DNA of 64,000 bases from an uncultured Muribaculaceae bacterium (GTDB lineage: Bacteria > Bacillota_I > Bacilli_A > RF39 > UBA660), in the NCBI GenBank assembly GCA_964481005.1, contig CAYZRY010000002.1, positions 3,488 through 67,487 on the forward strand, in the 5' to 3' direction. The notes under the pieces are model-generated. The model saw nothing but the letters and a program-made list of their open reading frames with translations, did not search any database and had not been told where the DNA came from. The first letter of the stretch is position 1; each line of letters opens with the position of its first letter. Made by a program: the position numbers and the translations under genes. Of this stretch, positions 1,095-44,515 are shown one piece after another.

Positions 1095-3902
1095 CTATAA
1101 GACTTTCTTCAAGAATTGACCGGTATACGATTTTGAACATTTAATTATTTCTTCAGGTGTACCACTGCAGATTATCTCTCCGCCTTTGTCTCCACCTTCA
1201 GGACCTATATCAATAATGTGATCTGCTGTCTTAATCATATCTAAGTTATGTTCAATGACCACTACTGTATCCTTATTATCTACTATTTTATTTATTATTG
1301 CAAGCAGGCTTTTAATATCGTGAGTGTGCAAACCAGTCGTTGGTTCATCAAGAATGAATAAGGTTTTACCAGTAGCTACTTTTTGCAATTCTTTGACTAG
1401 TTTAACACGGCTAGCTTCTCCACCAGATAAGGTAGGTGCACTTTGTCCAAGTTTGATATAACCAAGTCCTATTTCATTTAAGACTTTAAGTTTCTTTTTG
1501 ATTTTAGGAACATTTTCGAAAAACTCGTAAGCCTCGCTAACACGCATATCTAGCACATCAGCAATGTTTTTGTCTTTATATTTAATTCTGAGTGTTTCAC
1601 TGTTGTATCTAGTTCCATGACAAACTTCACAAGGAACGTAGACATCGGGTAAAAAGTGCATTTCAATCTTTTTAACACCGTCTCCGCGACAAGCTTCACA
1701 GCGACCACCCTTTACATTAAATGAGAAACGATCTTTTCCAAAGCCGTACATTTTAGCTTCTTTAGTATTGGTAAATAGGGTTCTAATTTCATCAAAGACA
1801 CCAGTGTATGTTGCTGGATTACTCCTTGGTGTTCTACCAATTGGTGACTGATCAATTTCGACAACTTTATCTATATGTTCAAGTCCCTTAATAGCTTTAT
1901 GCTTACCAACTGTTACTTTCGATTTATAGACCTTGTGCTGCGCAGCTTTAGCAAGAATGTCAATAATTAGACTTGATTTTCCCGAACCAGAAACTCCAGT
2001 TACACAAGTAAATTTACCAAGTGGAATGTCGACATCAATATTTTTTAAGTTGTTTTCACTAGCGCCTTGAATAGTAATTTTCTTACCTGTTCCCTCTCTT
2101 CGTACACTGGGAACATCTATCTTTTCTTTACCACTTAAATATCTTCCAGTTAAACTTTTTTCATTGGCCATGACTTCTTTTGGTGTGCCAGCGGCAACTA
2201 CTTTTCCACCCATGTCACCAGCAAGTGGACCTATATCAACCAAATAATCACTAGCTAGCATCGTATCACTATCATGTTCAACGACAATTAAAGTGTTACC
2301 AAGGTCTCTCATTTCAATCAAAGATTTAATTAACTTATCATTATCTCGCTGATGAAGACCAATACTTGGTTCATCTAGTACATAAAGTACTCCCGTAAGG
2401 CGTGATCCAATCTGCGTTGCTAATCTGATTCTTTGTGCTTCTCCACCAGATAAACTTCCAGCCATTCTAGCTAGTGTTAAATAATCGAGTCCAACGTTTA
2501 ATAGAAACTGTAGACGATTATTAATCTCGGCTATTAACACCCGAGAAATCTCTGTTTTTTCTGCAGATAGTTTTAAGCTCTTTAAAAAGTTATACAATTC
2601 TCCAATACTGAGACTAGTCACTTCATAAATATTTTTATTATTAATTTTAACTGAGAGTACTTCTCTTGAAAGACGAGCACCATTACAACTAGGACAAGTC
2701 TGTTCAATCATGTATCCTTCGATCCATTCACGTACCCAAGCACTAGTAGTTGAAAGATAACGTCGCTCTAAATTGTTAACAATTCCCTCGTACGGTTCTT
2801 TCTTGTTGTATACGTTTCCACCCTTAGAAACATAATTAAAGTGAATATTCTCATCACTACCATAAAAGATAATATCTTTTTCTTTTTGACTTAGTTTTTT
2901 AAATGGTTTATCAGTATCTATACCAAAATGTTTACAAACACATTCAAGCATTTGATTGTAGATATTTTCACTATCATCACCAAGAGTTCTAATAGCATAT
3001 TTATCAATCGATAACTCTTCGTCTGGTACTAGCAGATCAGGAGATACTCGTCTTTTAATTCCTAATCCATTACATTCTGGGCAGGCTCCATATGGCGAAT
3101 TAAAGCTAAACATACGTGGTTCAAGTTCAGGTAGTGAGAACGAACAGTGCGGACAAGCGAACTTCTCCGACATAATTATTTCTCCTTCGCCCTTTTTATC
3201 AATTAATACTTTCCCTCTAGCAAGTTTTGCTCCAGTTTCAAGTGCTTCAAAAAGTCTACTTCTAATACCTTCTTTTATAACTAGACGGTCGATAACTACA
3301 TCTATTTTATGTTTAATATTTTTTTCTAAACTAATTTCTTCGCTTAGATCTCTATCTTCTCCATCAACTCTGACCCTTACAAAACCATCACTTTTAAGTT
3401 TTTGTAAGAGATCTTTGTGCTCTCCTTTTTCACCATCGACAATCGGAGCCATGATAACTACTTTTGTACCTTCATCAAAAGACATAACTTTATTAGTCAT
3501 CTCTTCGATCGATTGACTACTTATTTCAACATGATGATCAGGACAGTAAACTGTTCCAATTCTAGCATATAGCAATCTCAAATAATCATATATTTCTGTG
3601 ACTGTTCCAACTGTTGAACGTGGATTGTTACTAGTTGTTTTTTGATCGATACTGATAGCGGGTGATAATCCTTCGATGGAATCGACATCAGGTTTTTCCG
3701 TCCCACCCAAAAACTGTCTAGCATAAGCGCTAAGACTTTCTACATATCTTCGTTGTCCTTCGGCATATATCGTATCAAAAGCTAAACTACTTTTCCCAGA
3801 ACCAGATACACCAGTCATGACAATCAGTGAATTTTTAGGAAGCTCGATATCAATATCTTTAAGATTATTCTCTCTAGCTCCCTTAATAATTATTTTATCC
3901 AT
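1095..3902 (-). CDS. uvrA: excinuclease ABC subunit A
   Basis: 935 aa with two ABC ATPase modules (GVSGSGKSSLAFDT.., GVSGSGKSSL..), zinc-finger Cys pairs, LSGGEAQR signatures. Confidence 0.96.
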   Translation of the reverse strand: MDKIIIKGARENNLKDIDIELPKNSLIVMTGVSGSGKSSLAFDTIYAEGQRRYVESLSAYARQFLGGTEKPDVDSIEGLSPAISIDQKTTSNNPRSTVGTVTEIYDYLRLLYARIGTVYCPDHHVEISSQSIEEMTNKVMSFDEGTKVVIMAPIVDGEKGEHKDLLQKLKSDGFVRVRVDGEDRDLSEEISLEKNIKHKIDVVIDRLVIKEGIRSRLFEALETGAKLARGKVLIDKKGEGEIIMSEKFACPHCSFSLPELEPRMFSFNSPYGACPECNGLGIKRRVSPDLLVPDEELSIDKYAIRTLGDDSENIYNQMLECVCKHFGIDTDKPFKKLSQKEKDIIFYGSDENIHFNYVSKGGNVYNKKEPYEGIVNNLERRYLSTTSAWVREWIEGYMIEQTCPSCNGARLSREVLSVKINNKNIYEVTSLSIGELYNFLKSLKLSAEKTEISRVLIAEINNRLQFLLNVGLDYLTLARMAGSLSGGEAQRIRLATQIGSRLTGVLYVLDEPSIGLHQRDNDKLIKSLIEMRDLGNTLIVVEHDSDTMLASDYLVDIGPLAGDMGGKVVAAGTPKEVMANEKSLTGRYLSGKEKIDVPSVRREGTGKKITIQGASENNLKNIDVDIPLGKFTCVTGVSGSGKSSLIIDILAKAAQHKVYKSKVTVGKHKAIKGLEHIDKVVEIDQSPIGRTPRSNPATYTGVFDEIRTLFTNTKEAKMYGFGKDRFSFNVKGGRCEACRGDGVKKIEMHFLPDVYVPCEVCHGTRYNSETLRIKYKDKNIADVLDMRVSEAYEFFENVPKIKKKLKVLNEIGLGYIKLGQSAPTLSGGEASRVKLVKELQKVATGKTLFILDEPTTGLHTHDIKSLLAIINKIVDNKDTVVVIEHNLDMIKTADHIIDIGPEGGDKGGEIICSGTPEEIIKCSKSYTGQFLKKVL

Positions 3903-4389
3903 ATTGCCTCATTTTAATTTTTTCTTTAATTGTTTGATCCAAATATAATGAATCTCCTAAGAACAATTCAAGTTCTTCAGGAAGCAAATAATACTGTTCA
4001 ACAAATCTTCTTTTTCTAAAGAAAGCTGTATCTTTCATATATTCGATTAGTTCTTCGTGACTCATTTTAGATTTTAGGATTATTTCTCTAGCTGCGTACA
4101 TATCATAGTATCCATAGTATTCATCTTCGTATGTAACATAATCACTAGTATTTGATTCAATTCTGCAGATATCGATATCATCTTTAGTAACAAGACCAGT
4201 ATCTGGCAGAAAGTATCTTAACGTATCTTCAGGATTAGCACAAAAATGATAGCCATTACCCCTATTGCCGAAAGATATAACACCTTCGACACTGTATGTC
4301 TTATTTAGTACAAATTGCTTACCATATCTATTTATTAGTCCCTTATCGAAACATTTAAATCCTCTTATCATACGCACCTCAAACGCCAC
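3895..4389 (-). CDS. hypothetical protein, 164 aa, inserted between uvrB and uvrA
   Basis: Long ORF. Start 2 nt after stop of upstream radical-SAM gene; stop overlaps uvrA ATG by 8 nt (translational coupling). No motif I recognise. Confidence 0.6.
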   Translation of the reverse strand: MAFEVRMIRGFKCFDKGLINRYGKQFVLNKTYSVEGVISFGNRGNGYHFCANPEDTLRYFLPDTGLVTKDDIDICRIESNTSDYVTYEDEYYGYYDMYAAREIILKSKMSHEELIEYMKDTAFFRKRRFVEQYYLLPEELELFLGDSLYLDQTIKEKIKMRQYG

Positions 4390-4391
4390 TA

Positions 4392-5186
4392 TTATAATAC
4401 AAAACGATCTTTAAAGCGACATTTTTTACATAAATCTAAATATGCTTTATTATTTTTAAATGATTGATTAGTTTTGATAAATTCTTCAGATTCTAAGATT
4501 TCAGCAAGTGACTTGTCAAAAACGTTACCAAAACTAGCATCACCATTACCATCTAAACAGCAAGGAACAACTGTCCCATCAGCTAAAATACCAATTTGAT
4601 TGATTGTCCCTAAACAGTATGAATCAGTTTCTTCTTCATCTTCTAAAGTTGGCCATCTAAATTCTTCATCTAAACTTAAATAAATGTTCTTTGCCAATTT
4701 ACAATTTTCTGGCATCTCATCAAAATGATATCTATTTTTAAGAAAATTCATTACCTCTTCGTCATAAACACCATTATTACTAATCCAAATTCGGTAATTA
4801 ATATACATATTATCACTTAGTCTATCGCAAGTTTCGGCAAGAGCATTTAAGTCTTTAATACACTCACTATGAAGAGAAACATTTATCTGATGAACTATTT
4901 CGTTTAATATATTTTCTTTTTTAGTTAGCAGTGAAGAATTGGTCGTAATTACTACTTTGAGATTATTTTTTTGACAAATATCTAAAATATCATTTAATTG
5001 ACTATGTAAAAGTGGTTCACCTTTGACGTGGAGGTAAATATAATCACTGTAATTTTTAACTTCTTTAGCAAGCTTTTTAAAATTATCGATAGACATTTCA
5101 CCACGATCATTCCAAGGTTTACAAAAGCAGCAGTTCAAATTACATTTACTTGTTATTTCGACATATATCTTTTTAAATCTAGCCAT
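4392..5186 (-). CDS. radical SAM enzyme with C-terminal Cys-rich (SPASM/twitch-like) region
   Basis: N-terminal CNLNCCFC = CX3CX2C radical SAM cluster motif at residues ~15-22, GEPLL motif, C-terminal PCC..C..C cluster. ATG at 5186 (MARFKK) chosen over GTG at 5195; ATG overlaps uvrB stop by 8 nt. Confidence 0.7.
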
Positions 5187-7137
5187 TTTTTTCACTCTTC
5201 ATCTCAAAGATGATATCTCTTAGTTCCATCGCTCTTTCAAAGTCTAGTTCATCAGCTGCTTTCATCATTGCCTGTTCAAGTTCTTCGATAGTAACAGTAG
5301 CATAATTATCTTCGCTCTTTTTCTTCTTGCTAACTTTTGTCTCATCGACATTAGAGATCAAGTCTCTGACTTCTTTGATGATTGTCTTAGGTACAATGCC
5401 ATTTTCTTCATTATATTTTTCTTGAATGTTTCGTCTTCGCGCTGTCTCTTCGATAGCATTTTTCATCGAATCTGTTATCTTATCAGCATACATTATTGTT
5501 TTACCTTCGGCATTACGAGCACATCGTCCAATTGTCTGTATTAAACTGCGGGTACTACGAAGGAAACCTTCTTTGTCAGCATCGAGAATTGCAATTAGGC
5601 TAACTTCCGGTATATCTAATCCTTCACGAAGTAAGTTAATTCCAACTAAGCAATCGTACTTTCCAAGGCGAAGATCTCGAATGATACGCAATCTCTCTAA
5701 CGTTTTAACTTCAGCATGTATATAGGCAACTGAAATGTCGATATTTTTTAAGTAATCTGTTAACTCCTCGGCCATTCTAATCGTTAAGGTAGTAATTAAA
5801 GTTCTTTCTCCTCTAGCGATGCGTTCTTTTATCTCACCTATTAAATCATCTATTTGTCCATGACTTGGTCTAATTTCAATTAGTGGATCAAGTAGTCCAG
5901 TCGGTCTGATAATTTGTTCAACGACCCTTTTATCAACCTTTTCAAGTTCATAATCACCAGGCGTTGCTGAAACATATATTGCCTGATTAATTTTCTTTTC
6001 AAACTCATCGAAGGTTAAAGGTCTATTATCAAGAGCACTAGGCAATCTAAAGCCATAGTCAACAAGTGTCTGTTTACGCGATCTATCACCATTGTACATT
6101 GCTCTGACTTGCGGAACAGTTACATGCGATTCATCGATAACCAGTAAAAAGTCATCCGGAAAGAAGTCCATCAATGTCTCTGGTGTTTCACCGGCTTTTC
6201 TACCCGCTAAATGTCTCGAATAGTTTTCTATACCAGAGCAAAAACCAGTTTCACTCATCATCTCTAAATCGTATTTGACTCTTTGCTCAAGTCTTTGATA
6301 TTCAACTAACTTATTAGCTTCGGCTAATTCTTCTAATCTTTCGGCAAGTTCAAGTTTAATATTCTCAATTGCTTTTTCAAGTTTTTCACTACCAACGACA
6401 AAGTGACTAGCTGGAAAAATAGAAACACTTTTTTTATTTAATTTAATTGTTCCCGTCAAGACATCAAACTCACTGATGCGCTCTATTTCATCGCCAAAGA
6501 ATTCAACCCTTATTCCACTAGCTCTTTCATATGTAGGAATTATCTCAAGGACATCTCCCCTTACCCTAAAAGTACCACGTTTAAAATCGTGGTCATTTCT
6601 TTCAAAAAGCATATCGACAAGTTTTAATAAAACTTTATCTCTATCTATTTCATCACCGACATTTAGAGTCAGCATATTTTTTTCGTATTCTTCTTTTTCA
6701 CCAATACCATAAATACAAGAGACACTAGCTACGACTATTACATCGCGTCTTGAAATCAAGCTACTGGTCGCAGCATGTCTAAGTTCGTCTATTTCATCAT
6801 TAATCGAAGAATCTTTTTCAATATAGGTATCAGTCGATGGAACATAAGCTTCCGGTTGATAATAATCGTAGTACGAAACAAAGTATTCTACTCGGTTATC
6901 GGGAAATAATTCTTTTAATTCTGAATATAATTGACCCGCTAAAGTTTTGTTATGAGCCATAATGAGAGTTGGTTTTTGAACTTTTTCGATAACGTTTGCT
7001 ATTGTGAAAGTTTTACCTGTTCCAGTTGCACCCAAAAGGACCTGGCTTTCTTTGCCAAGTTCTATTCCTTCGACTAATTTATCTATTGCCTGTGGCTGAT
7101 CACCAGCCGCTTTAAAACTCGATGCAATCTTAAACAT
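5179..7137 (-). CDS. uvrB: excinuclease ABC subunit B
   Basis: 652 aa; helicase motifs [13 protein letters not shown]-terminal UVR domain ([23 protein letters not shown]). Confidence 0.96.
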
Positions 7138-23628: not shown

Positions 23629-25221
23629 CTATAATGTTGGGTAAACACCCGGTCCGATTGGGATACCTATCAAGTACCACCCTAGAATTATACATATCCA
23701 TGTTATCACCATGACGATGAAATATGGATATACATAAGCCAGAGCTTTTCTGATGGAAACTGGGTCCTTACCAGTATTATATATGTTTAAGTACGCTAAG
23801 TAAATAACAAAAAATCCCATAAATGGTGTTATTCCCTTAGTGATGGAATCAGCTGCTCTAAATATAAATTGAGCAAACTGAGGAGAAATATTAGATTGCA
23901 TCATCATCGGTACAACCACTGGTGAAAAGATAATCCATTTGTTTAAAGTAGATGGATAGAATAATCCAGTGAAGGCTACAACGACGATTGTCAGCATAAT
24001 CAAACTAATGTTTTTGAAGGCAAGAAATTGAATAATTTCTGCTCCATAACAAGCTAATAATAAACCGATGTTTGTCTGTTTAAAAATAGCTAAGGCTTGG
24101 ACAAAGAAGAAGACAATTAAAGCCACGTAACCAATATTTTTTAAATATAGAGCTGCTTTTTCAAATAAATCTTTGTCGTTTTTGATCGTTTTAGCTCCGA
24201 TTCCATAAGCAACTCCACATACCATCAGTAGAATAGTTGTCATGTAGGTAAAACCATCTTTGAAATATGATTGTGCACCAAACAATTGATTTGTGTAAGC
24301 TATTCTATTTGTATCAAGTAAGATTCCTGAACCAGGTAAACCTGGAGTAATCATATAAATAAAGATGGCAATAATTGTGATTAGGGCAATAAATGCATAT
24401 TTTACTCCGCGTTTTTCAAGTACTTCTCTCTCTATTTTTTCTTTATCATCAAGCTCACCAACCAATGTATGTTCGCTAGTTTCTTCAAGAATTTCATCAT
24501 CTAAACGATATCTTCCAATCTTTTTTAGAATCATCGATTCAATTGCCATTGTTCCAACGATTGATAAAATAATTGTACTACCCATCATAATAAATAAATT
24601 TGATAATAGTGCTACATGGGCTTCAGAATCAATTAATCTAGCTGCCATTGTTGTAATTGGTACCATACTTACATCCAGTGATCCAACAAATAACGATGTT
24701 CCATAACCAAAGGCTACTCCGCAGAAAGCAGCAGTAATACCAAGTAATGGACTACGCTTGTTAGCTAGGAAAACTAATGCTCCGATTGGAATTAAAACTG
24801 CATAACCGATATCATTTACAATATTTGAACTAATAGCGATAAATATTAATGAAAAAGTAATAAATTTATTGCTCATTTTAAAAGTAATTCTTCGAATTAC
24901 AGCATCAATTAAACCAGATGCGTGCGTTATGCTAACACCAATTAAACCAATAATAAGCGTTAAAAATACTGAGAAGCTACCAAAATTACTAGCAGCATTA
25001 CTAAATATATATTTAAATCCATCATAGTTAAACATATTGCGTACTTCGACAGTAATTGTTCTAAGTTCGTTGGTTCTCGAATCGATTACTCTATATGTTG
25101 ATTGGAGATCAAATCTCGATAAAACAAAACTTAGAAATATCGTGAAAACGGCTAATAAGATTAAACTAGTGACTGGATGCAGATTAAACTTTTTTAGTCT
25201 GCGTCTTTTTCGCTCTTTCAT
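23629..25221 (-). CDS. AbgT-family transporter
   Basis: 530 aa polytopic; C-terminal segment ..FAQFIFRAADS.. and ..WYLIGIPIGPGVYP matches the AbgT/MtrF family C-terminus as I remember it. Confidence 0.75.
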   Translation of the reverse strand: MKERKRRRLKKFNLHPVTSLILLAVFTIFLSFVLSRFDLQSTYRVIDSRTNELRTITVEVRNMFNYDGFKYIFSNAASNFGSFSVFLTLIIGLIGVSITHASGLIDAVIRRITFKMSNKFITFSLIFIAISSNIVNDIGYAVLIPIGALVFLANKRSPLLGITAAFCGVAFGYGTSLFVGSLDVSMVPITTMAARLIDSEAHVALLSNLFIMMGSTIILSIVGTMAIESMILKKIGRYRLDDEILEETSEHTLVGELDDKEKIEREVLEKRGVKYAFIALITIIAIFIYMITPGLPGSGILLDTNRIAYTNQLFGAQSYFKDGFTYMTTILLMVCGVAYGIGAKTIKNDKDLFEKAALYLKNIGYVALIVFFFVQALAIFKQTNIGLLLACYGAEIIQFLAFKNISLIMLTIVVVAFTGLFYPSTLNKWIIFSPVVVPMMMQSNISPQFAQFIFRAADSITKGITPFMGFFVIYLAYLNIYNTGKDPVSIRKALAYVYPYFIVMVITWICIILGWYLIGIPIGPGVYPTL

Positions 25222-34544: not shown

Positions 34545-34597
34545 AGGTCACCTTCCAATAACATTATATAATAAAAAACCCACTATTAAAGTGGTTT

Positions 34598-34714
34598 TTA
34601 TACTAATTTTTTTCTTCCCCTAGCTCTTCTTCTTTTTAAAACAGATTTAGAAGTAGCAAAAAAACCGTGTACTTTTGCTTTTTTTCTCTTGTTAGGTTGA
34701 TAAGTTCTTTTCAT
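34598..34714 (-). CDS. rpmH: 50S ribosomal protein L34
   Basis: Not in ORF track (short). Hand translation of minus strand: [38 protein letters not shown]; classic rpmH-rnpA-yidC order. Confidence 0.85.
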
Positions 34715-34779: not shown

Positions 34780-34925
34780 TTACTTATAAACATATTAACA
34801 ACTATGTTGATAATTATTTTAGACATGTTATTAAAAATTTGTGGAAATTGTTAATAACTTCGTTTATAATAACAAACTAACGATTTTAATTGTGGATATC
34901 TTTGTGGATATCTTGTGAACACTCT
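34780..34925. promoter_or_regulatory. oriC upstream DnaA-box cluster and dnaA promoter region
   Basis: DnaA-box-like 9-mers: TGTTGATAA (34805), TGTGGAAAT (34840), TGTGGATAT (34891 and 34904, 13 bp apart), TGTGAACAC (34915). AT-rich; strand switch of all genes here. Confidence 0.7.
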
Positions 34926-36469: not shown

Positions 36470-37594
36470 ATGAAATTAAAAATTAAAAGAGAAGTTCTAT
36501 TAAATGCTCTTAACAAGGTATCTAAAGCCATATCAAGTAAAAATCTTATTCCTGTTCTATCTGGAATTAAATTTAAACTAGATAAGAAAGGTTTAAATCT
36601 ATTAGCATCTGATAACGATATAACAATCGAAGTATTCATTCCTATAAATAAAGAAGATATGACAATTGAAAAAGAGGGAAGTATTATTATATCTGGTAAA
36701 TACATATTAGATATAATAAGAAAACTTAATTCAGAATATATAAATATTGAAGTCGTAGATGAATTAAAGATCGTTGTCTATACTGAAAGTAGTGAATTTA
36801 ATTTAAATGGAATCAATCAAAGTGAATATCCTAATATAAATATTGAACTTGCGGATAATCCAATAGTAATAAACAATAAAATGTTAAAGACTATTGTATA
36901 TCAGACTTCTTTTGTAACATCAAATGATGAAGCAAGACCAATATTAACAGGTATTAATCTATTAATTAATAATAAAGAGATTGAATGTAATGCTACAGAT
37001 TCATATAGATTAGCTAAAAAGGTAGTTAAGTTAAGTAAAAAAGTTGATGAAGCTCAAAATATAGTTATTCCAAGTAAGAATATTAATGAATTTATCAAAA
37101 TACTTGATGATAATGATAGTGAAGTAGAGATCCATGTATTTACAAATAAAATTGTATTTAAATATGACAATATTCTATTTCAATCTAGATTAATTAATGG
37201 AAGTTTCCCAAATACTAATAATTTGTTTCCGACAGAATATCTACTTAAGATTAAATTCAATATAAATGAATTATATAATGTTATTGATAGAGCAAGTATT
37301 TTGACCTCTGATCGTGAAAAGAATGTTGTAACTCTTGAAACTGAAGGAAATCAATTAACTGTTAGATCTCAATCAGCTGAAATAGGGCGAGTTGAAGAAA
37401 AAATGACAATTGAGAAAGATAGTAAAGAAGATATTAAAATATCTTTCAGTGCTAAATACATGATGGAAGCTTTAAAATCATTCGATGAAGAAGAAGTTGA
37501 AATATCATTTGTTGGTGAAGTAAAACCTATAATTATTAAGAAAATTAACAAAGAAGATTTAATTCAATTAGTTTTACCAATAAGAACTTATTAA
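36470..37594 (+). CDS. dnaN: DNA polymerase III beta sliding clamp
   Basis: 374 aa, three-domain beta-clamp, follows dnaA. Confidence 0.95.
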   Translation: MKLKIKREVLLNALNKVSKAISSKNLIPVLSGIKFKLDKKGLNLLASDNDITIEVFIPINKEDMTIEKEGSIIISGKYILDIIRKLNSEYINIEVVDELKIVVYTESSEFNLNGINQSEYPNINIELADNPIVINNKMLKTIVYQTSFVTSNDEARPILTGINLLINNKEIECNATDSYRLAKKVVKLSKKVDEAQNIVIPSKNINEFIKILDDNDSEVEIHVFTNKIVFKYDNILFQSRLINGSFPNTNNLFPTEYLLKIKFNINELYNVIDRASILTSDREKNVVTLETEGNQLTVRSQSAEIGRVEEKMTIEKDSKEDIKISFSAKYMMEALKSFDEEEVEISFVGEVKPIIIKKINKEDLIQLVLPIRTY

Positions 37595-37595
37595 T

Positions 37596-37625
37596 TTCGA
37601 CAAAAAACGACAAAATTCGACAAAA
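37596..37625 (+). repeat. three tandem 10-bp direct repeats TTCGACAAAA / AACGACAAAA / TTCGACAAAA upstream of comK-like gene
   Basis: Read directly: CGACAAAA core repeated with exactly 10-bp (one helical turn) phase, abutting a TTGATA -35-like hexamer at 37630. Confidence 0.6.
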
Positions 37626-37671
37626 GTAATTGATATACTTTCCTCATAATTTTTTATGAAGGGGGAAATGT

Positions 37672-38124
37672 ATGAAAAATTATGAAATTAATGAAGATAC
37701 TATGGCTATTGTTCCAGTATCATATTATGAAAGTTTAATTAAAGAGAAGGATAGGGAATTCATTATTAACAACAATTCTTATAAAATAATGGAATATAGT
37801 TGTGAATATTATGGAAGTACTATCGGTGGTCGTTTAAAAGCAGCTAAAAAGATATTTGATTGTCCTTATAAGACACCGCTTTTAATCGAAGAAAGTGAAA
37901 ATATTATCTTTTTTCCGACTAAATCTGCCAAAGATGAAGATTGTTTATGGATTAATAATAATTATGTTGAAAAGATAATTAAAAAAGATGGAACAAGTGT
38001 CTTATTATTCACAAATGGTGATTCAATTAATATTAATACATCTAAGCTATCACTAGAAAATCAAGTTGCCAGATCAGCAAGATATGAAAACATATTAAGA
38101 AAAAGAAAATTATCTACAAAATAA
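37672..38124 (+). CDS. comK: ComK-family competence transcription factor homolog
   Basis: 150 aa. Blocks matching B. subtilis ComK as I remember it: AIVP, SCEYYGSTIGGRLKAAK (vs SCRFFGSSYAGRKAG), IIFFPTKS (vs IFLFPTLS), CLWIN (vs CGWIS), SLENQVARSARYENIL (vs SFENQVYRTAWLRTKF). Confidence 0.65.
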   Translation: MKNYEINEDTMAIVPVSYYESLIKEKDREFIINNNSYKIMEYSCEYYGSTIGGRLKAAKKIFDCPYKTPLLIEESENIIFFPTKSAKDEDCLWINNNYVEKIIKKDGTSVLLFTNGDSININTSKLSLENQVARSARYENILRKRKLSTK

Positions 38125-38150
38125 AAGAGAGTATATCTCTTTTTTTATTT
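38124..38150 (+). terminator. rho-independent terminator after comK-like gene
   Basis: AAAGAGA-GTATA-TCTCTTT followed by TTTTTATTTT. Confidence 0.55.
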
Positions 38151-38240
38151 TAAATAGGTAAATTTCGTGATATAATATTTATATGTACTCTTCCACTAAT
38201 AAATGATAATTTACAAAATAGGGCGGTTTAAAGGTGAAAA

Positions 38241-41262
<3,022 letters not shown>

Positions 41263-41270
41263 GAGGAATT

Positions 41271-43754
41271 ATGGCAGATTTTTATAAAGATTTACAATTA
41301 TCACATGAAATAAAGAAGTCTTTTCTAGATTATGCAATGAGTGTAATTGTTTCACGTGCATTACCTGATGTAAAAGACGGATTAAAACCAGTTCAACGTA
41401 GAATTGTCTATGGAATGAATGAGCTTGGTGCAGTTGCAAGCAGTCCACATAAGAAAAGTGCTCGTATTACCGGAGATGTTATGGGTAAATATCATCCGCA
41501 CGGTGATTCAAGTATTTATGATGCACTAGTTAGGATGGCTCAGGACTTTTCATATCGTTATATGTTGGTCGATGGACACGGTAACTTTGGTTCAATTGAT
41601 GGAGATGGTGCTGCAGCACAACGTTATACTGAAGCCAGAATGTCTAAATTAAGTATGGAACTTGTTCGTGATATGAACAAAAACACAGTTGATTTTACTC
41701 AAAACTATGATGGTGAAGAGAAAGAACCGACAGTTTTGCCAGCAAGATTTCCAAACCTTTTAGTAAATGGATCAACAGGTATTGCAGTTGGTATGGCAAC
41801 TAATATACCACCACATAACCTAGGTGAAGTAATTGATGGAACGGTCGCATTATTAGATAATCCAGAGATCGATATTGATGGATTGATGGAATATATCAAA
41901 GGGCCAGACTTTCCAACAGGAGCAACAATTCTAGGAAATGCAGGTATCAAAAAAGGATACGAAACAGGACGCGGAATAGTTACAATTAGATCTAAAGCCG
42001 AAATTCATGAAATGGATAATGGAAAACATCAAATAATTGTTACAGAAATCCCGTATATGGTAAATAAAGCTAATTTAGTTACTAAAATTGCTGATTTAGT
42101 TAGAAATAAAAATATAGATGGTATCACTGATTTACGTGACGAATCTAGTATGAAGGGAATAAAAATTGTAATCGAAGTACGTCGCGATGCAAACGCTAAC
42201 GTTATTTTGAATCAATTATACAAACAAACTTCTCTTCAGCAAACGTTTGGTATCAACAGTATTGCGTTAGTTGATGGAGAACCTAGAACACTATCTATTA
42301 AAGAAATGCTTGAGAAATATATTGAACATCAAAAGATAGTTATAATTAGAAGAACTAGATTTGATTTAGAAAAAGCTGAAGCTAGAGAACATATATTACA
42401 TGGTTTAGCAATTGCGTTAGATAATATTGATGCTATTGTTAAAATGCTAAAAGAGTCACCAGATGATGAAACAGCAACTAAAAATTTGATAAATACATTT
42501 AATTTAACTGAAATTCAAGCAAAAGCTATTCTAGAAATGAAACTTCGCCGATTAACTGGTCTAGAAAGAGACAAAATTAATCAAGAGTTAGAAGAATTAA
42601 AGAATTTAATTATTGAACTTAATTCAATTCTCCAAGATGATCAAAAAGTTATTAATATTATTAAAACCGAATTGTTAGAAATCAAAGATAAATACGGAGA
42701 TGAGCGAAGAACTAATATTGATATGAGTTCAATCGATTACATCGAAGATGAGTCATTGATCCCTGAAGAGAACATACTAATAACACTAACTAACAAAGGT
42801 TATATTAAACGCGTAGTAAATGACACATTTAAAACTCAAAACCGTGGAGGCGTTGGTATTAAAGGGATTACAACTAATGAAGAGGACTTCCCAGAGAAAA
42901 TAATGTCAATGAATACTCATGATTTCGTCTTACTGTTTAGTAATTACGGAAAAGTATACAGAATTAAAGGTTATGAAATTCCTGAGTTTAGTAGACAATC
43001 AAAAGGATTGCCAATAATTAATTTATTACCAATCGAAAAAGAAGAAAAAATAACTTCATCAATAATGATCAAAGCTGAAGAAGAAGAAAGTAAATATCTT
43101 ATCTTCGTTACAAAAGATGGTTTAATTAAAAGAACTGATCTAAGTGAATTTGACAGTATTAGAAAAAATGGTAAGATTGCAATTCTTCTTAAAGAAGGAG
43201 ACGAGTTAATAGCTGTTAGAAAATCTGATGGTTCAAAAGAAGTAGCAGTCGCTGCAAGTAATGGACGTATGGTTAGATTCGATGAAAATGAAGTTAGAGT
43301 AATGGGACGTAATAGTTCTGGAGTTAAAGCGATTAACTTTGAAGATGATAAAGTCATAGGTGCCGAAGTAGTAGATGCTGAATCTGAAATACTTGTTATT
43401 ACCGAAAACGGTTACGGTAAGAGAACAACTGTAGATGAATATCGTCTAACACATCGTGGAAGCAAAGGAGTTAAAGCTCTAAATATTACTGAAAAGAACG
43501 GTAAATTAGTTTCTATGAAATGTGTTTACGGTGATGAAGATATTGTCATCATCACTGATTTAGGAATGCTAATTAGAATTTCAACTGACGGAATATCTAA
43601 GTTAGGAAGAACAACTCAAGGAGTTAAACTTATCAATCTTAAAGAAGATCAAAAAGTTTCAACTGTTACAACTATTAGTAAAGAAGAGGAAAACAACGAA
43701 GAAACAACTGAAGAAATTGTTGAAGAACTTGAAAATTCCGAAGAAATAATATAA
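41271..43754 (+). CDS. gyrA: DNA gyrase subunit A
   Basis: 827 aa, catalytic Tyr region (..[27 protein letters not shown]..), C-terminal beta-pinwheel repeats, acidic tail. Confidence 0.96.
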
Positions 43755-43756
43755 AA

Positions 43757-43846
43757 TGTAAATGATGCAATGGATTGTATTAGAACCAGGTCAGGATAGG
43801 AATATAGCAGCCTTAATAGTTCTAATCCATGTGCATCATTTTTTTG
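43757..43846 (+). ncRNA. ffs: signal recognition particle RNA, small (4.5S-type, single hairpin)
   Basis: ACCAGGTCAGGATAGGAATATAGCAGCC matches SRP RNA domain IV (E. coli ACCAGGUCAGGUCCGGAAGGAAGCAGCC), with the GGAA tetraloop and both conserved loop strands intact. Closed by long stem AAATGATGCA-ATGGATT ... AATCCAT-GTGCATCATTT and terminal U7. Only ~100 nt between gyrA and tadA, so small type. Confidence 0.8.
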
Positions 43847-43855
43847 AGGTAATTT

Positions 43856-44289: not shown

Positions 44290-44333
44290 ATGTTTCACGT
44301 GAAACATCAAAAATTATTTCCCGGGAAATAATT
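44290..44333. promoter_or_regulatory. composite parS + Noc-binding-site palindromes, copy 1
   Basis: ATGTTTCACGTGAAACAT (perfect 18-bp palindrome containing exact parS TGTTTCACGTGAAACA) at 44290-44307; 4-bp spacer; AATTATTTCCCGGGAAATAATT (22-bp perfect palindrome containing NBS core ATTTCCCGGGAAAT) at 44312-44333. Confidence 0.8.
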
Positions 44334-44352
44334 TGAAACAAAAAACTAAGCA

Positions 44353-44397
44353 ATGTTTCACGTGAAACATTAATAAATTATTTCCCGGGAAATAATT
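44353..44397. promoter_or_regulatory. composite parS + Noc-binding-site palindromes, copy 2
   Basis: Identical 18-bp parS palindrome 44353-44370, 5-bp spacer, identical 22-bp NBS palindrome 44376-44397. Confidence 0.8.
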
Positions 44398-44471
44398 TAA
44401 CACATAAAATTATAAAAAATGTACTAATAAATCATTTTTAAAAACTTGAAAATATAATACATAACAATCTA

Positions 44472-44515
44472 ATGTTTCACGTGAAACATTAGAAATTATT
44501 TCCCGGGAAATAATT
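44472..44515. promoter_or_regulatory. composite parS + Noc-binding-site palindromes, copy 3
   Basis: Identical 18-bp parS palindrome 44472-44489, 4-bp spacer, identical 22-bp NBS palindrome 44494-44515. Confidence 0.8.

Follow-up and report, generated by a model that had tools for sequence, protein, structure and literature searches.

In Bacillus subtilis, comK is a stand-alone gene under complex upstream control. Its promoter, PcomK, is a direct target of Spo0A~P, with several 0A-like boxes, some activating and some repressing, one of which overlaps the -35 element (PMC3297582). B. subtilis ComK requires its last 25 residues for activation, although DNA binding does not depend on them, and the family also comprises the ComK2 proteins of B. 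cereus and S. aureus, which have no C-terminal activation region, 22 aa being missing from B. cereus ComK2 (PMC3128618). These ComK2 paralogs dampen or repress com genes (PMC3128618; PMC12491500). In terms of fold, a 2026 preprint places ComK, AgrA-LytTR, and RemA in one group (PMC13232269). As for Spo0A, its 0A box has the core TGTCGAA, with base contacts at G2, C4, and G5 (PMC3485338), and Spo0A~P dimers bind tandem 0A boxes that lie 3 bp apart, with four consecutive boxes in the phi29 origins (PMC2731898). Spo0A activates the sigma-A promoters of spoIIG and spoIIE, and 0A boxes have been reported to regulate kinC in B. subtilis (PMC12090719).

Here, we describe a comK-like gene found in the window, i.e., the whole stretch of 64,000 nucleotides (64 kb) that was analyzed, and compare it with these systems. 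The window is the replication-origin neighborhood of a low-GC Firmicute, with a turning point of the cumulative GC skew near 34-35 kb and with the genes arranged as jag, yidC, rnpA, then a gap containing DnaA boxes, dnaA, dnaN, the comK-like gene, recF, gyrB, and gyrA (Table 1). The rest of the window encodes housekeeping functions, namely uvrA/B, ftsEX, prfB, lysS, ftsH, tilS, divIC, ssb, rpsF, ychF, parA/parB/noc-like genes, gidA/B, trmE, SRP RNA, tadA, dnaX, ybaB, recR, holB, yaaT, pth, mfd, metS, tatD, ksgA, spoVG, thyX, rplI, and a replicative helicase. An initial sequence-only reading had noted a ComK-family homolog preceded by three phased direct repeats between dnaN and recF. This observation was confirmed, and the position was found both in the window and in related loci. 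There is no further plus-strand open reading frame of at least 50 aa between dnaN and recF in the window. In Bacillus, the same slot is occupied by yaaA/rlbA, and the fixed dnaN-recF position sets the gene apart from comK of B. subtilis.

Table 1. Coordinates of the comK-like gene, its promoter elements, and its neighbors in the window (promoter positions are relative to the inferred transcription start)
Feature	Position	Strand	Basis or remark
DnaA boxes, TTGTGGATATCT twice / canonical TGTGGATA	34890-34914		gap between rnpA and dnaA
dnaA	35010-36362		ORF list
dnaN (beta clamp), upstream neighbor	36470-37594	+	ORF list; Pfam DNA_pol3_beta on identical gene in L214
Distal box TTCGACAAAA	37596-37605	+	sequence; about -50 to -44
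Middle box AACGACAAAA	37606-37615	+	sequence; about -40 to -34
Proximal box TTCGACAAAA	37616-37625	+	sequence; about -30 to -24
Extended -10 TGaTATACT	37631-37639	+	column conservation
5' leader	37640-37666	+	about 26 nt
Weak leader hairpin CATAA-TTTT-TTATG	37645-37658	+	folding
Strong Shine-Dalgarno sequence AAGGGGGA	37659-37666	+	sequence
comK-like gene, 150 aa	37672-38124	+	Pfam PF06338
Terminator-like hairpin and T-run	38125-38146	+	-8.6 kcal/mol, z=-3.2
Separate recF promoter: TTTAAA, 16 nt, TATAAT, upstream TG (extended -10)	38149-38176	+	promoter scan
recF	38241-39356		ORF list

The 150-aa product belongs to the ComK family. A profile search, which had been suggested as a check of the proposed homology, gave a full-length match to PF06338 (E=1e-37; 129.7 bits, cut-off 22.3) that spans positions 2-150 of the 152 in the profile. 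The motif blocks named in the sequence-only reading are all present, as SCEYYGSTIGGR, IIFFPT, CLWI, and SLENQVAR. When aligned with B. subtilis ComK, the protein shares the blocks SCxxxGSxxxGR, FPT, CxWI, and ENQ, and thus all the conserved motifs; identity is approximately 33% over 141 aa. Eleven residues are invariant in 86 ComK-like sequences (C44, G48, S49, G53, R54, F80, F81, P82, C91, N130, and Q131), while T83 and W93 are nearly so. A word-indexed search returned 137 relatives, nearly all of 147-155 aa, and PF06338 was carried by 120 of the 120 homologs listed. In a full profile search of 1.84 billion representatives, which detected 1755 ComK-family clusters, the nearest scores were those of short forms of roughly 145-157 aa, and Bacillus-type forms of 190-196 aa entered from E about 1e-34. 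Judged by its sequence, the protein is an ordinary member of a known family.

The difference from B. subtilis ComK lies at the ends. Compared with the 192 aa of that protein, the 150-aa product has about 8 fewer residues at the N terminus and about 44 fewer at the C terminus. The alignment ends at residue 148 of 192, after which the 150-aa protein has only a 14-aa basic tail, and the B. subtilis-type C-terminal tail is absent. The comK-like product is a short-form ComK consisting of the core domain only. It shares the missing activation region with ComK2; however, ComK2 is a second copy beside a full-length ComK, whereas the short form described here is the conserved copy at its locus. No solved ComK structure was found in a structure search. 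A confident AF2 model built from 86 sequences (pLDDT 93.4, pTM 0.88) has a beta-rich core followed by a long C-terminal helix (residues 125-148). The protein is predicted to have a LytTR-like beta fold with a long basic C-terminal helix, and the LytTR-domain regulators AgrA and ComE are among the nearest known systems with which it may be compared.

The gene is a transcription unit of its own. It is preceded by its own promoter, its stop codon is directly followed by a hairpin and T-run, which is under the GC-pair threshold of the terminator scan, and recF has a separate promoter downstream (Table 1). Since these three features delimit it on both sides, we regard the comK-like gene as monocistronic. 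The proposal that the gene is wired into the recombination cluster of recF is without support, and its adjacency gives no evidence of a functional link or coregulation with recF.

The most distinctive part of the locus is its promoter. The three direct repeats in exact 10-bp register (37596-37625) that had been pointed out are real and helically phased. The first box begins 2 nt after the dnaN stop codon (37592-37594), and no terminator was found between dnaN and the boxes in the window. The cores comprise two perfect copies of TTCGACA and one AACGACA. Within the window, pairs of CGACAAA spaced 2-4 nt apart are confined to this site, and 100 shuffles produced no such pair. The unit CGACAAAA is present in 10 copies in the window versus 2.5 expected, and the 7 copies outside the promoter are single and mostly inside coding sequence. 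With a promoter matrix built from related genomes, the site scores 46.8 bits, while the rest of the window never exceeds 24 bits and 20 shuffled 64-kb windows peak at no more than 11.9 bits. A second tandem copy reported by a tandem-repeat finder (24172-24192) is degenerate and lies inside a transporter gene, and was treated as chance. No other regulon member was detected in the window, the other copies of TTCGACA in its annotated part being intragenic and mostly on the antisense strand. The earlier statement that the repeats are not ComK A/T boxes also stands: AAAA-N5-TTTT is absent between dnaN and the start codon, and the window as a whole shows no enrichment of this motif (14 copies versus 18 expected).

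Downstream of the boxes lies an extended -10 element. The TTGATA at 37630-37635, which had been taken for a -35-like hexamer, instead overlaps this conserved TGaTATACT, whose columns are T in 62 of 67 species and G in 60 of 67 for the TG, and TA in all 67. A standard sigma-70 scan upstream of the comK-like gene returned no -35/-10 pair, no -35 hexamer is found 16-18 nt from the extended -10, and CAAAAT occupies the 6 positions at which a properly spaced -35 would lie. We infer a transcription start near 37646, which places the boxes at about -50 to -24. The proximal box lies closer to the -10 than class II activator sites do in textbook examples, a point that we count against activation. In the leader, an upstream UUCCUC can pair with the Shine-Dalgarno sequence; folding of the leader (-7.3 kcal/mol, z=-1.0) is not significant taken alone. 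A leader hairpin is present in about two-thirds of 65 species (median z -3.1), its sequence varying by clade, and there was no Rfam match in the dnaN-comK intergenic region.

This arrangement is widely conserved. The synteny set comprised 80 loci from a scan of one genome per species, all of them from RF39-like uncultured "Bacilli," "Tenericutes," or mislabeled MAGs, including Clostridium sp. CAG:710 and Bacillales bacterium UBA660; UBA660 is a family within the GTDB order RF39 (supplement of PMC10868615). Wherever a locus covers the flanks, the order dnaA-dnaN-comK-recF-gyrB is kept, with ComK identities of 36-80%, the few exceptions being insertions such as a 1.7-kb transposase-like insert in L062. 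The same order was found at all comK-like loci with flanks among the listed matches of a metagenome scan described below. In nearly every species, the dnaN-comK spacer contains one to three TTCGACA-like boxes, and 67 of the 80 species fit, without gaps, the pattern [box-N3]x3, N8, TGnTAnnnT, with one to three phased boxes. The consensus of these 67 species is TTCGACA at all three positions. The proximal box is the best conserved (C in 60, G in 63, A in 66, and C in 66 of the 67 species) and is always 8 nt upstream of the TG of the extended -10. The distal box corresponds to a conserved block of columns (15-23) in which ACA is nearly invariant, and the middle box, the most degenerate position, is often degraded to leave a 21-bp gap. 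In the most divergent species, only the middle box is left, as TTGACA or TCGACA, 21 nt from the -10 hexamer. In spoIIG and spoIIE, the -35-like elements lie 21-22 bp from the -10, a spacing that the TTGACA-like single box may recall.

Exact copies of TTCGACA are concentrated in these promoters, with 58 of the 123 copies in 679 kb falling within 13 kb of comK promoters, an approximately 90-fold enrichment over the other 666 kb, which hold 65 copies. Phased pairs show the same trend: 53 of 69 were in comK promoters, and the remainder were mostly look-alikes of DnaA boxes (TTCCACA) in oriC. Chance, or a repeat that is merely AT rich, is ruled out by the shuffles, the matrix score, and this enrichment in related promoters.

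What kind of protein reads such boxes is suggested by their sequence. Read on the opposite strand, TTCGACA is exactly the 0A box TGTCGAA, and the contact bases G2, C4, and G5 of the latter map to C6, G4, and C3 on the strand shown here. These are precisely the most informative columns of the proximal box (C6 2.7, G4 2.4, and C3 2.1 bits). Variants point in the same direction, since only the uncontacted middle base is altered in the TCGCCA of one clade of comK promoters (L004, L006, and L009), and only an uncontacted base in the TTCGTCA and TTCGCCA of kinase promoters described below. The boxes in the window also have the tandem head-to-tail layout with 3-bp spacers, and they thus share core, tandem arrangement, and spacers with the sites at spoIIG, spoIIE, abrB, and phages phi29 and Nf (PMC2731898). 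As in Spo0A-activated sigma-A promoters, they lie in the -35 region ahead of a good -10. Unlike in known Spo0A promoters, there are three near-perfect boxes reaching to -24, an extended -10, and a ComK-family target. The comparison with PcomK is similarly mixed. Both promoters carry several boxes of this type; however, those of the comK-like gene are of consensus quality, in tandem, and in place of the -35, while those of PcomK flank ComK and Rok sites, and the comK-like promoter is without the A4-N5-T4 ComK boxes.

The same promoter module is present at other genes. We scanned metagenome contigs for TTCGACA-N13/14-TTCGACA-N8-TGNTA, which yielded at least 120 loci. Among the matches listed, the GC-rich ones were inside genes or in unrelated repeats, and the low-GC ones (22-31% GC) carried the three-box promoter, with comK-like genes accounting for more than half of the latter. 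Further copies of the repeat in promoters, which had been proposed as a search target, thus exist at kinases and other genes in metagenome contigs and are missing from the window. Also among the matches listed, the module is found upstream of 1) HisKA histidine kinases (L136, L138, and L150), 2) Rpn-family nuclease-like proteins (L088, L096, L098, and L200), 3) a 56-58-aa protein (L139 and L185), 4) a transcript of about 75 nt ending in a terminator (L120 and L122, similarly L164 and L195), and 5) a DinD-like protein, a MuF_C protein, and a small membrane protein followed by radC (L100).

Inspection of the kinase sequences points to orphan proteins that are predicted to cross the membrane five or six times. 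Their catalytic core matches AtoS best and, among Firmicute models, the sporulation kinase KinD; one was named "sporulation sensor kinase B" by its JGI source, and another was assigned by NCBI to a "Bacilli bacterium" MAG. Kinase homologs with 51-57% identity keep both a CotZ / PTS_EIIB-like / kinase neighborhood and the three-box promoter. A matrix derived from comK promoters only scored 38-44 bits on the kinase promoters, as compared to no more than 11.9 bits in shuffles. The kinase contigs also encode CotZ, SpoIIIAH, SpoVIF, and a GerE-like protein. There were no genes common to the kinase contigs and the comK contigs, and none of the assembly accessions recovered for the kinase contigs was among the 80 comK-bearing genomes; a common lineage for the two sets of contigs is putative, which we count against the Spo0A reading described below.

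Taken together, the identity with the 0A box and the module at orphan sporulation-type kinases make a response-regulator or activator-type site, as initially suspected, the best reading of the repeats. We estimate at roughly 50% the probability that the locus is a short-form comK-like gene that stands alone and is switched on by Spo0A~P or by a very similar response regulator, a scheme in which we infer the box-binding protein, activation rather than repression, and the downstream targets of the ComK-like protein. The gene would be a self-contained regulatory unit with its own activator-dependent sigma-A-type promoter, in which the -35 is replaced by three tandem TTCGACA heptamers with 3-bp spacers that, at about -50, -40, and -30, all face the same side of the helix. 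Phosphorylated Spo0A, or a response regulator of the same specificity, would occupy the boxes head-to-tail and recruit or reposition RNA polymerase, and the orphan KinB/KinD-like kinases that have the same promoter module may feed that regulator. The ComK-like factor would then be produced when cells pass into stationary phase and Spo0A~P increases. Since the boxes match the Spo0A site, stationary-phase signaling probably switches the comK-like gene on.

Several findings weigh against Spo0A itself. No spo0A gene lies within the window, and a tblastn search of 1.46 Mb of loci with B. subtilis Spo0A retrieved receiver domains only and no Spo0A C-terminal domain. We also count against it that spoIIE, yabP/Q, yabG, sspF, and spoVT, all of which belong to the origin neighborhood of B. 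subtilis, are absent from the window, and that spoIIA, spoIIG, and spo0A are not among the roughly 25 other low-GC module promoters listed. Perfect 0A boxes are, for their part, expected at low-threshold genes rather than at spoIIA, spoIIG, or spo0A. Another difference from the known Spo0A sites is the host, an uncultured lineage with reduced genomes for which the capacity to form spores is contested. RF39 genomes reportedly retain many genes for sporulation, a process that they are predicted to carry out, which speaks for the Spo0A reading (PMC10868615, the supplement of which holds no spo0A table), and a machine-learning study, which we count against the Spo0A reading, gives a sporulation probability of 0% for RF39 MAGs (PMC12536801).

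These points leave room for other binders, the main one being the ComK-like protein itself. The heptamers would then be direct repeats read in a LytTR-like manner, and the protein would regulate its own gene and drive the orphan kinases, Rpn-like nucleases, small RNA, and small proteins as its regulon, acting upstream of the Spo0A phosphorelay or partly replacing it, rather than in DNA uptake. We think this unlikely. The direct repeats bound by LytTR regulators have a spacing of about 21 bp, the two best-kept boxes are 21 bp apart, and the predicted LytTR-like fold, which belongs to a class binding such repeats, would make the ComK-like protein a credible candidate. The comK-like gene also represents more than half of the low-GC module matches listed, and several targets are related to DNA metabolism (the Rpn-family nuclease, the DinD-like protein, and radC downstream in L100). 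A LytTR domain, though, covers about 12-15 bp, and a small helix-turn-helix domain would be the better fit for three sites in 10-bp register. Only one box is left in the most divergent species, and both the identity with the 0A box at 7 of 7 positions and the peak of conservation at the bases contacted by Spo0A would have to be coincidental. Autoregulation of ComK is established in B. subtilis (PMC3297582), but the protein described here is without the C-terminal part on which activation by B. subtilis ComK depends (PMC3128618). Furthermore, none of comG, comE, comF, dprA, or ssbB was among the roughly 25 other module promoters listed, and this absence of late com genes argues against ComK acting as a competence master via these boxes; late competence genes (comG, comE, comF, and dprA) were not found within the 64-kb window either. 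It is quite unlikely, in our opinion, that the boxes are bound by another response regulator, a partner of the orphan kinases with 0A or near-0A specificity, and that Spo0A is not involved. At least four species-level variants have the module in front of orphan HisKA kinases, as is typical of two-component autoregulation, and head-to-tail repeats with a period of 10-11 bp are common for OmpR/PhoB-type regulators. However, we know of no other characterized Firmicute regulator with a TGTCGAA site, and the kinases resemble sporulation kinases and adjoin sporulation genes.

A negative or purely structural role of the boxes, be it as the operator of a repressor such as CtsR, as DnaA boxes spilling over from oriC, or as bent, UP-like phased A-tracts, is very improbable. 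A protein occupying -50 to -24 would block polymerase, as expected for a repressor, but a promoter with no -35 needs help rather than blocking. The CtsR site is the tandem heptad GGTCAAA-NAN-GGTCAAA, with which the box unit shares the 7+3 layout and 5 of 7 positions; CtsR was rejected because the mismatches hit the conserved C and A. With respect to DnaA, the box differs from TTATCCACA at only 2 of 9 positions, and a few TTCCACA/TTCGACA pairs exist in the oriC regions of related loci, but the G that tells the two apart is retained in 63 of 67 species and the DnaA boxes of the window itself are canonical (Table 1), and this candidate was also discarded. Finally, there are A4 tracts every 10 bp, as a bent structure would have, yet conservation peaks on CGAC and not on these tracts. 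This role and any remaining readings are improbable, even jointly.

Activation by Spo0A~P, or by a regulator very similar to it, therefore remains our preferred reading, and the interpretation of the sequence-only reading is, overall, partly supported. Its notion of a distinct input into competence regulation is new in part only, since Spo0A~P is already known to bind PcomK (PMC3297582). Our literature search found no paper linking RF39 to competence or ComK and no cultured RF39 representative. Relative to the literature searched, what is new is 1) the short form as the conserved copy, in the dnaN-recF slot of seemingly a whole order-level uncultured lineage, 2) a minimal promoter made of three consensus boxes and an extended -10, and 3) a module common to the comK-like gene and orphan kinases.

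RF39-type bacteria have very small genomes and are widespread in the gut. Since all species examined retain the comK-like gene in a fixed place near the origin, behind a clean promoter module, this gene likely controls an important switch in their life cycle. If Spo0A reads the module, the connection between ComK and Spo0A would be ancient, and in these bacteria it would be hard-wired in a simple manner, through consensus boxes in a promoter that shows no sign of the extra repressor sites of the B. subtilis type. This would provide a tractable model for the coupling of competence-type and sporulation-type decisions. It would also hint that these organisms may be naturally transformable in stationary phase, which could aid their genetic manipulation, and the pattern [TTCGACA-N3]x3, N8, TGnTAnnnT offers a probe for an early stationary-phase regulon in metagenomes.

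In the comK-like gene, the leader segment that separates the -10 element from the Shine-Dalgarno sequence has a hairpin in about two thirds of the species represented by the comK-like loci of related genomes (L001-L080, one genome per species). Across these loci, its sequence is clade specific, for example GAAAACG...GTTTTC, TGTAATTTT...AAAATTACA or AAATTTCTAGAAATTT, which suggests either that an RNA structure is conserved at the 5' end or that the element is a palindromic operator. The copy in the window (37640-37666) is weak, and its 5' arm is able to pair with the Shine-Dalgarno sequence. In one related genome (L062, ~2230-4000), the boxes are lost and a 1.7-kb transposase-like insertion lies between dnaN and the comK-like gene. 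In one metagenome locus (L165, 10853-10980), the three-box promoter is present in two tandem copies upstream of the comK-like gene.

Other features of the window are listed in the table below. The position of oriC is marked by the GC-skew minimum. A weak, sub-threshold match to the Rfam model Phe_leader, which adjoins rnpA/rpmH (34570-34683, minus strand), is probably due to chance. The Noc/ParB-like protein is far longer than the adjoining ParB-like protein (292 aa), and its extra C-terminal part has no match to any Pfam family; a Pfam search likewise gave no match for the ORF downstream of mfd. In the gap between tadA and dnaX, the two palindromes of the composite element each occur three times in the whole window, always within the interval listed, when none would be expected by chance. 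These copies may serve as operators or constitute a small repeat element.

Further features of the window, in window coordinates
Feature	Position	Strand	Context and details
Radical-SAM/SPASM gene and DUF7666 gene	3895-5195	-	Inserted between uvrB and uvrA
Noc/ParB-like protein, 472 aa	27160-28578	-	
Canonical DnaA boxes, TTGTGGATATCT (two)	34890-34914		Upstream of dnaA
Small SRP RNA	43754-43852	+	Between gyrA and tadA; RF00169, 67.6 bits
Composite element, three copies	44290-44515		tadA-dnaX intergenic region; each copy combines the perfect palindromes ATGTTTCACGTGAAACAT and AAATTATTTCCCGGGAAATAATTT
ORF, 221 aa	54122-54787	+	Downstream of mfd

The three-box module also precedes other genes. 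Among the metagenome matches listed, Rpn-family nuclease-like proteins of ~300 aa (L088, L096, L098 and L200) and a conserved protein of 56-58 aa (L139 and L185) recur behind it. At the kinase loci (L204-L213), an orphan multi-span HisKA kinase lies in a kept neighbourhood (CotZ/PTS_EIIB-like/kinase/Rce1-like/tyrS), and its promoter carries the module, scoring 38-44 bits on a matrix built only from comK promoters. The contigs of these kinases also encode SpoIIIAH, SpoVIF and a GerE-like gene. Finally, at two metagenome loci (L120 and L122), the three-box promoter drives a transcript of ~75 nt with an internal hairpin, and two more loci (L164 and L195) have a promoter and a hairpin that resemble these. 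Since the ~75-nt transcript of L120 and L122 lacks an ORF and has an intrinsic terminator at its end, it qualifies as a candidate small RNA, which may belong to the same regulon.
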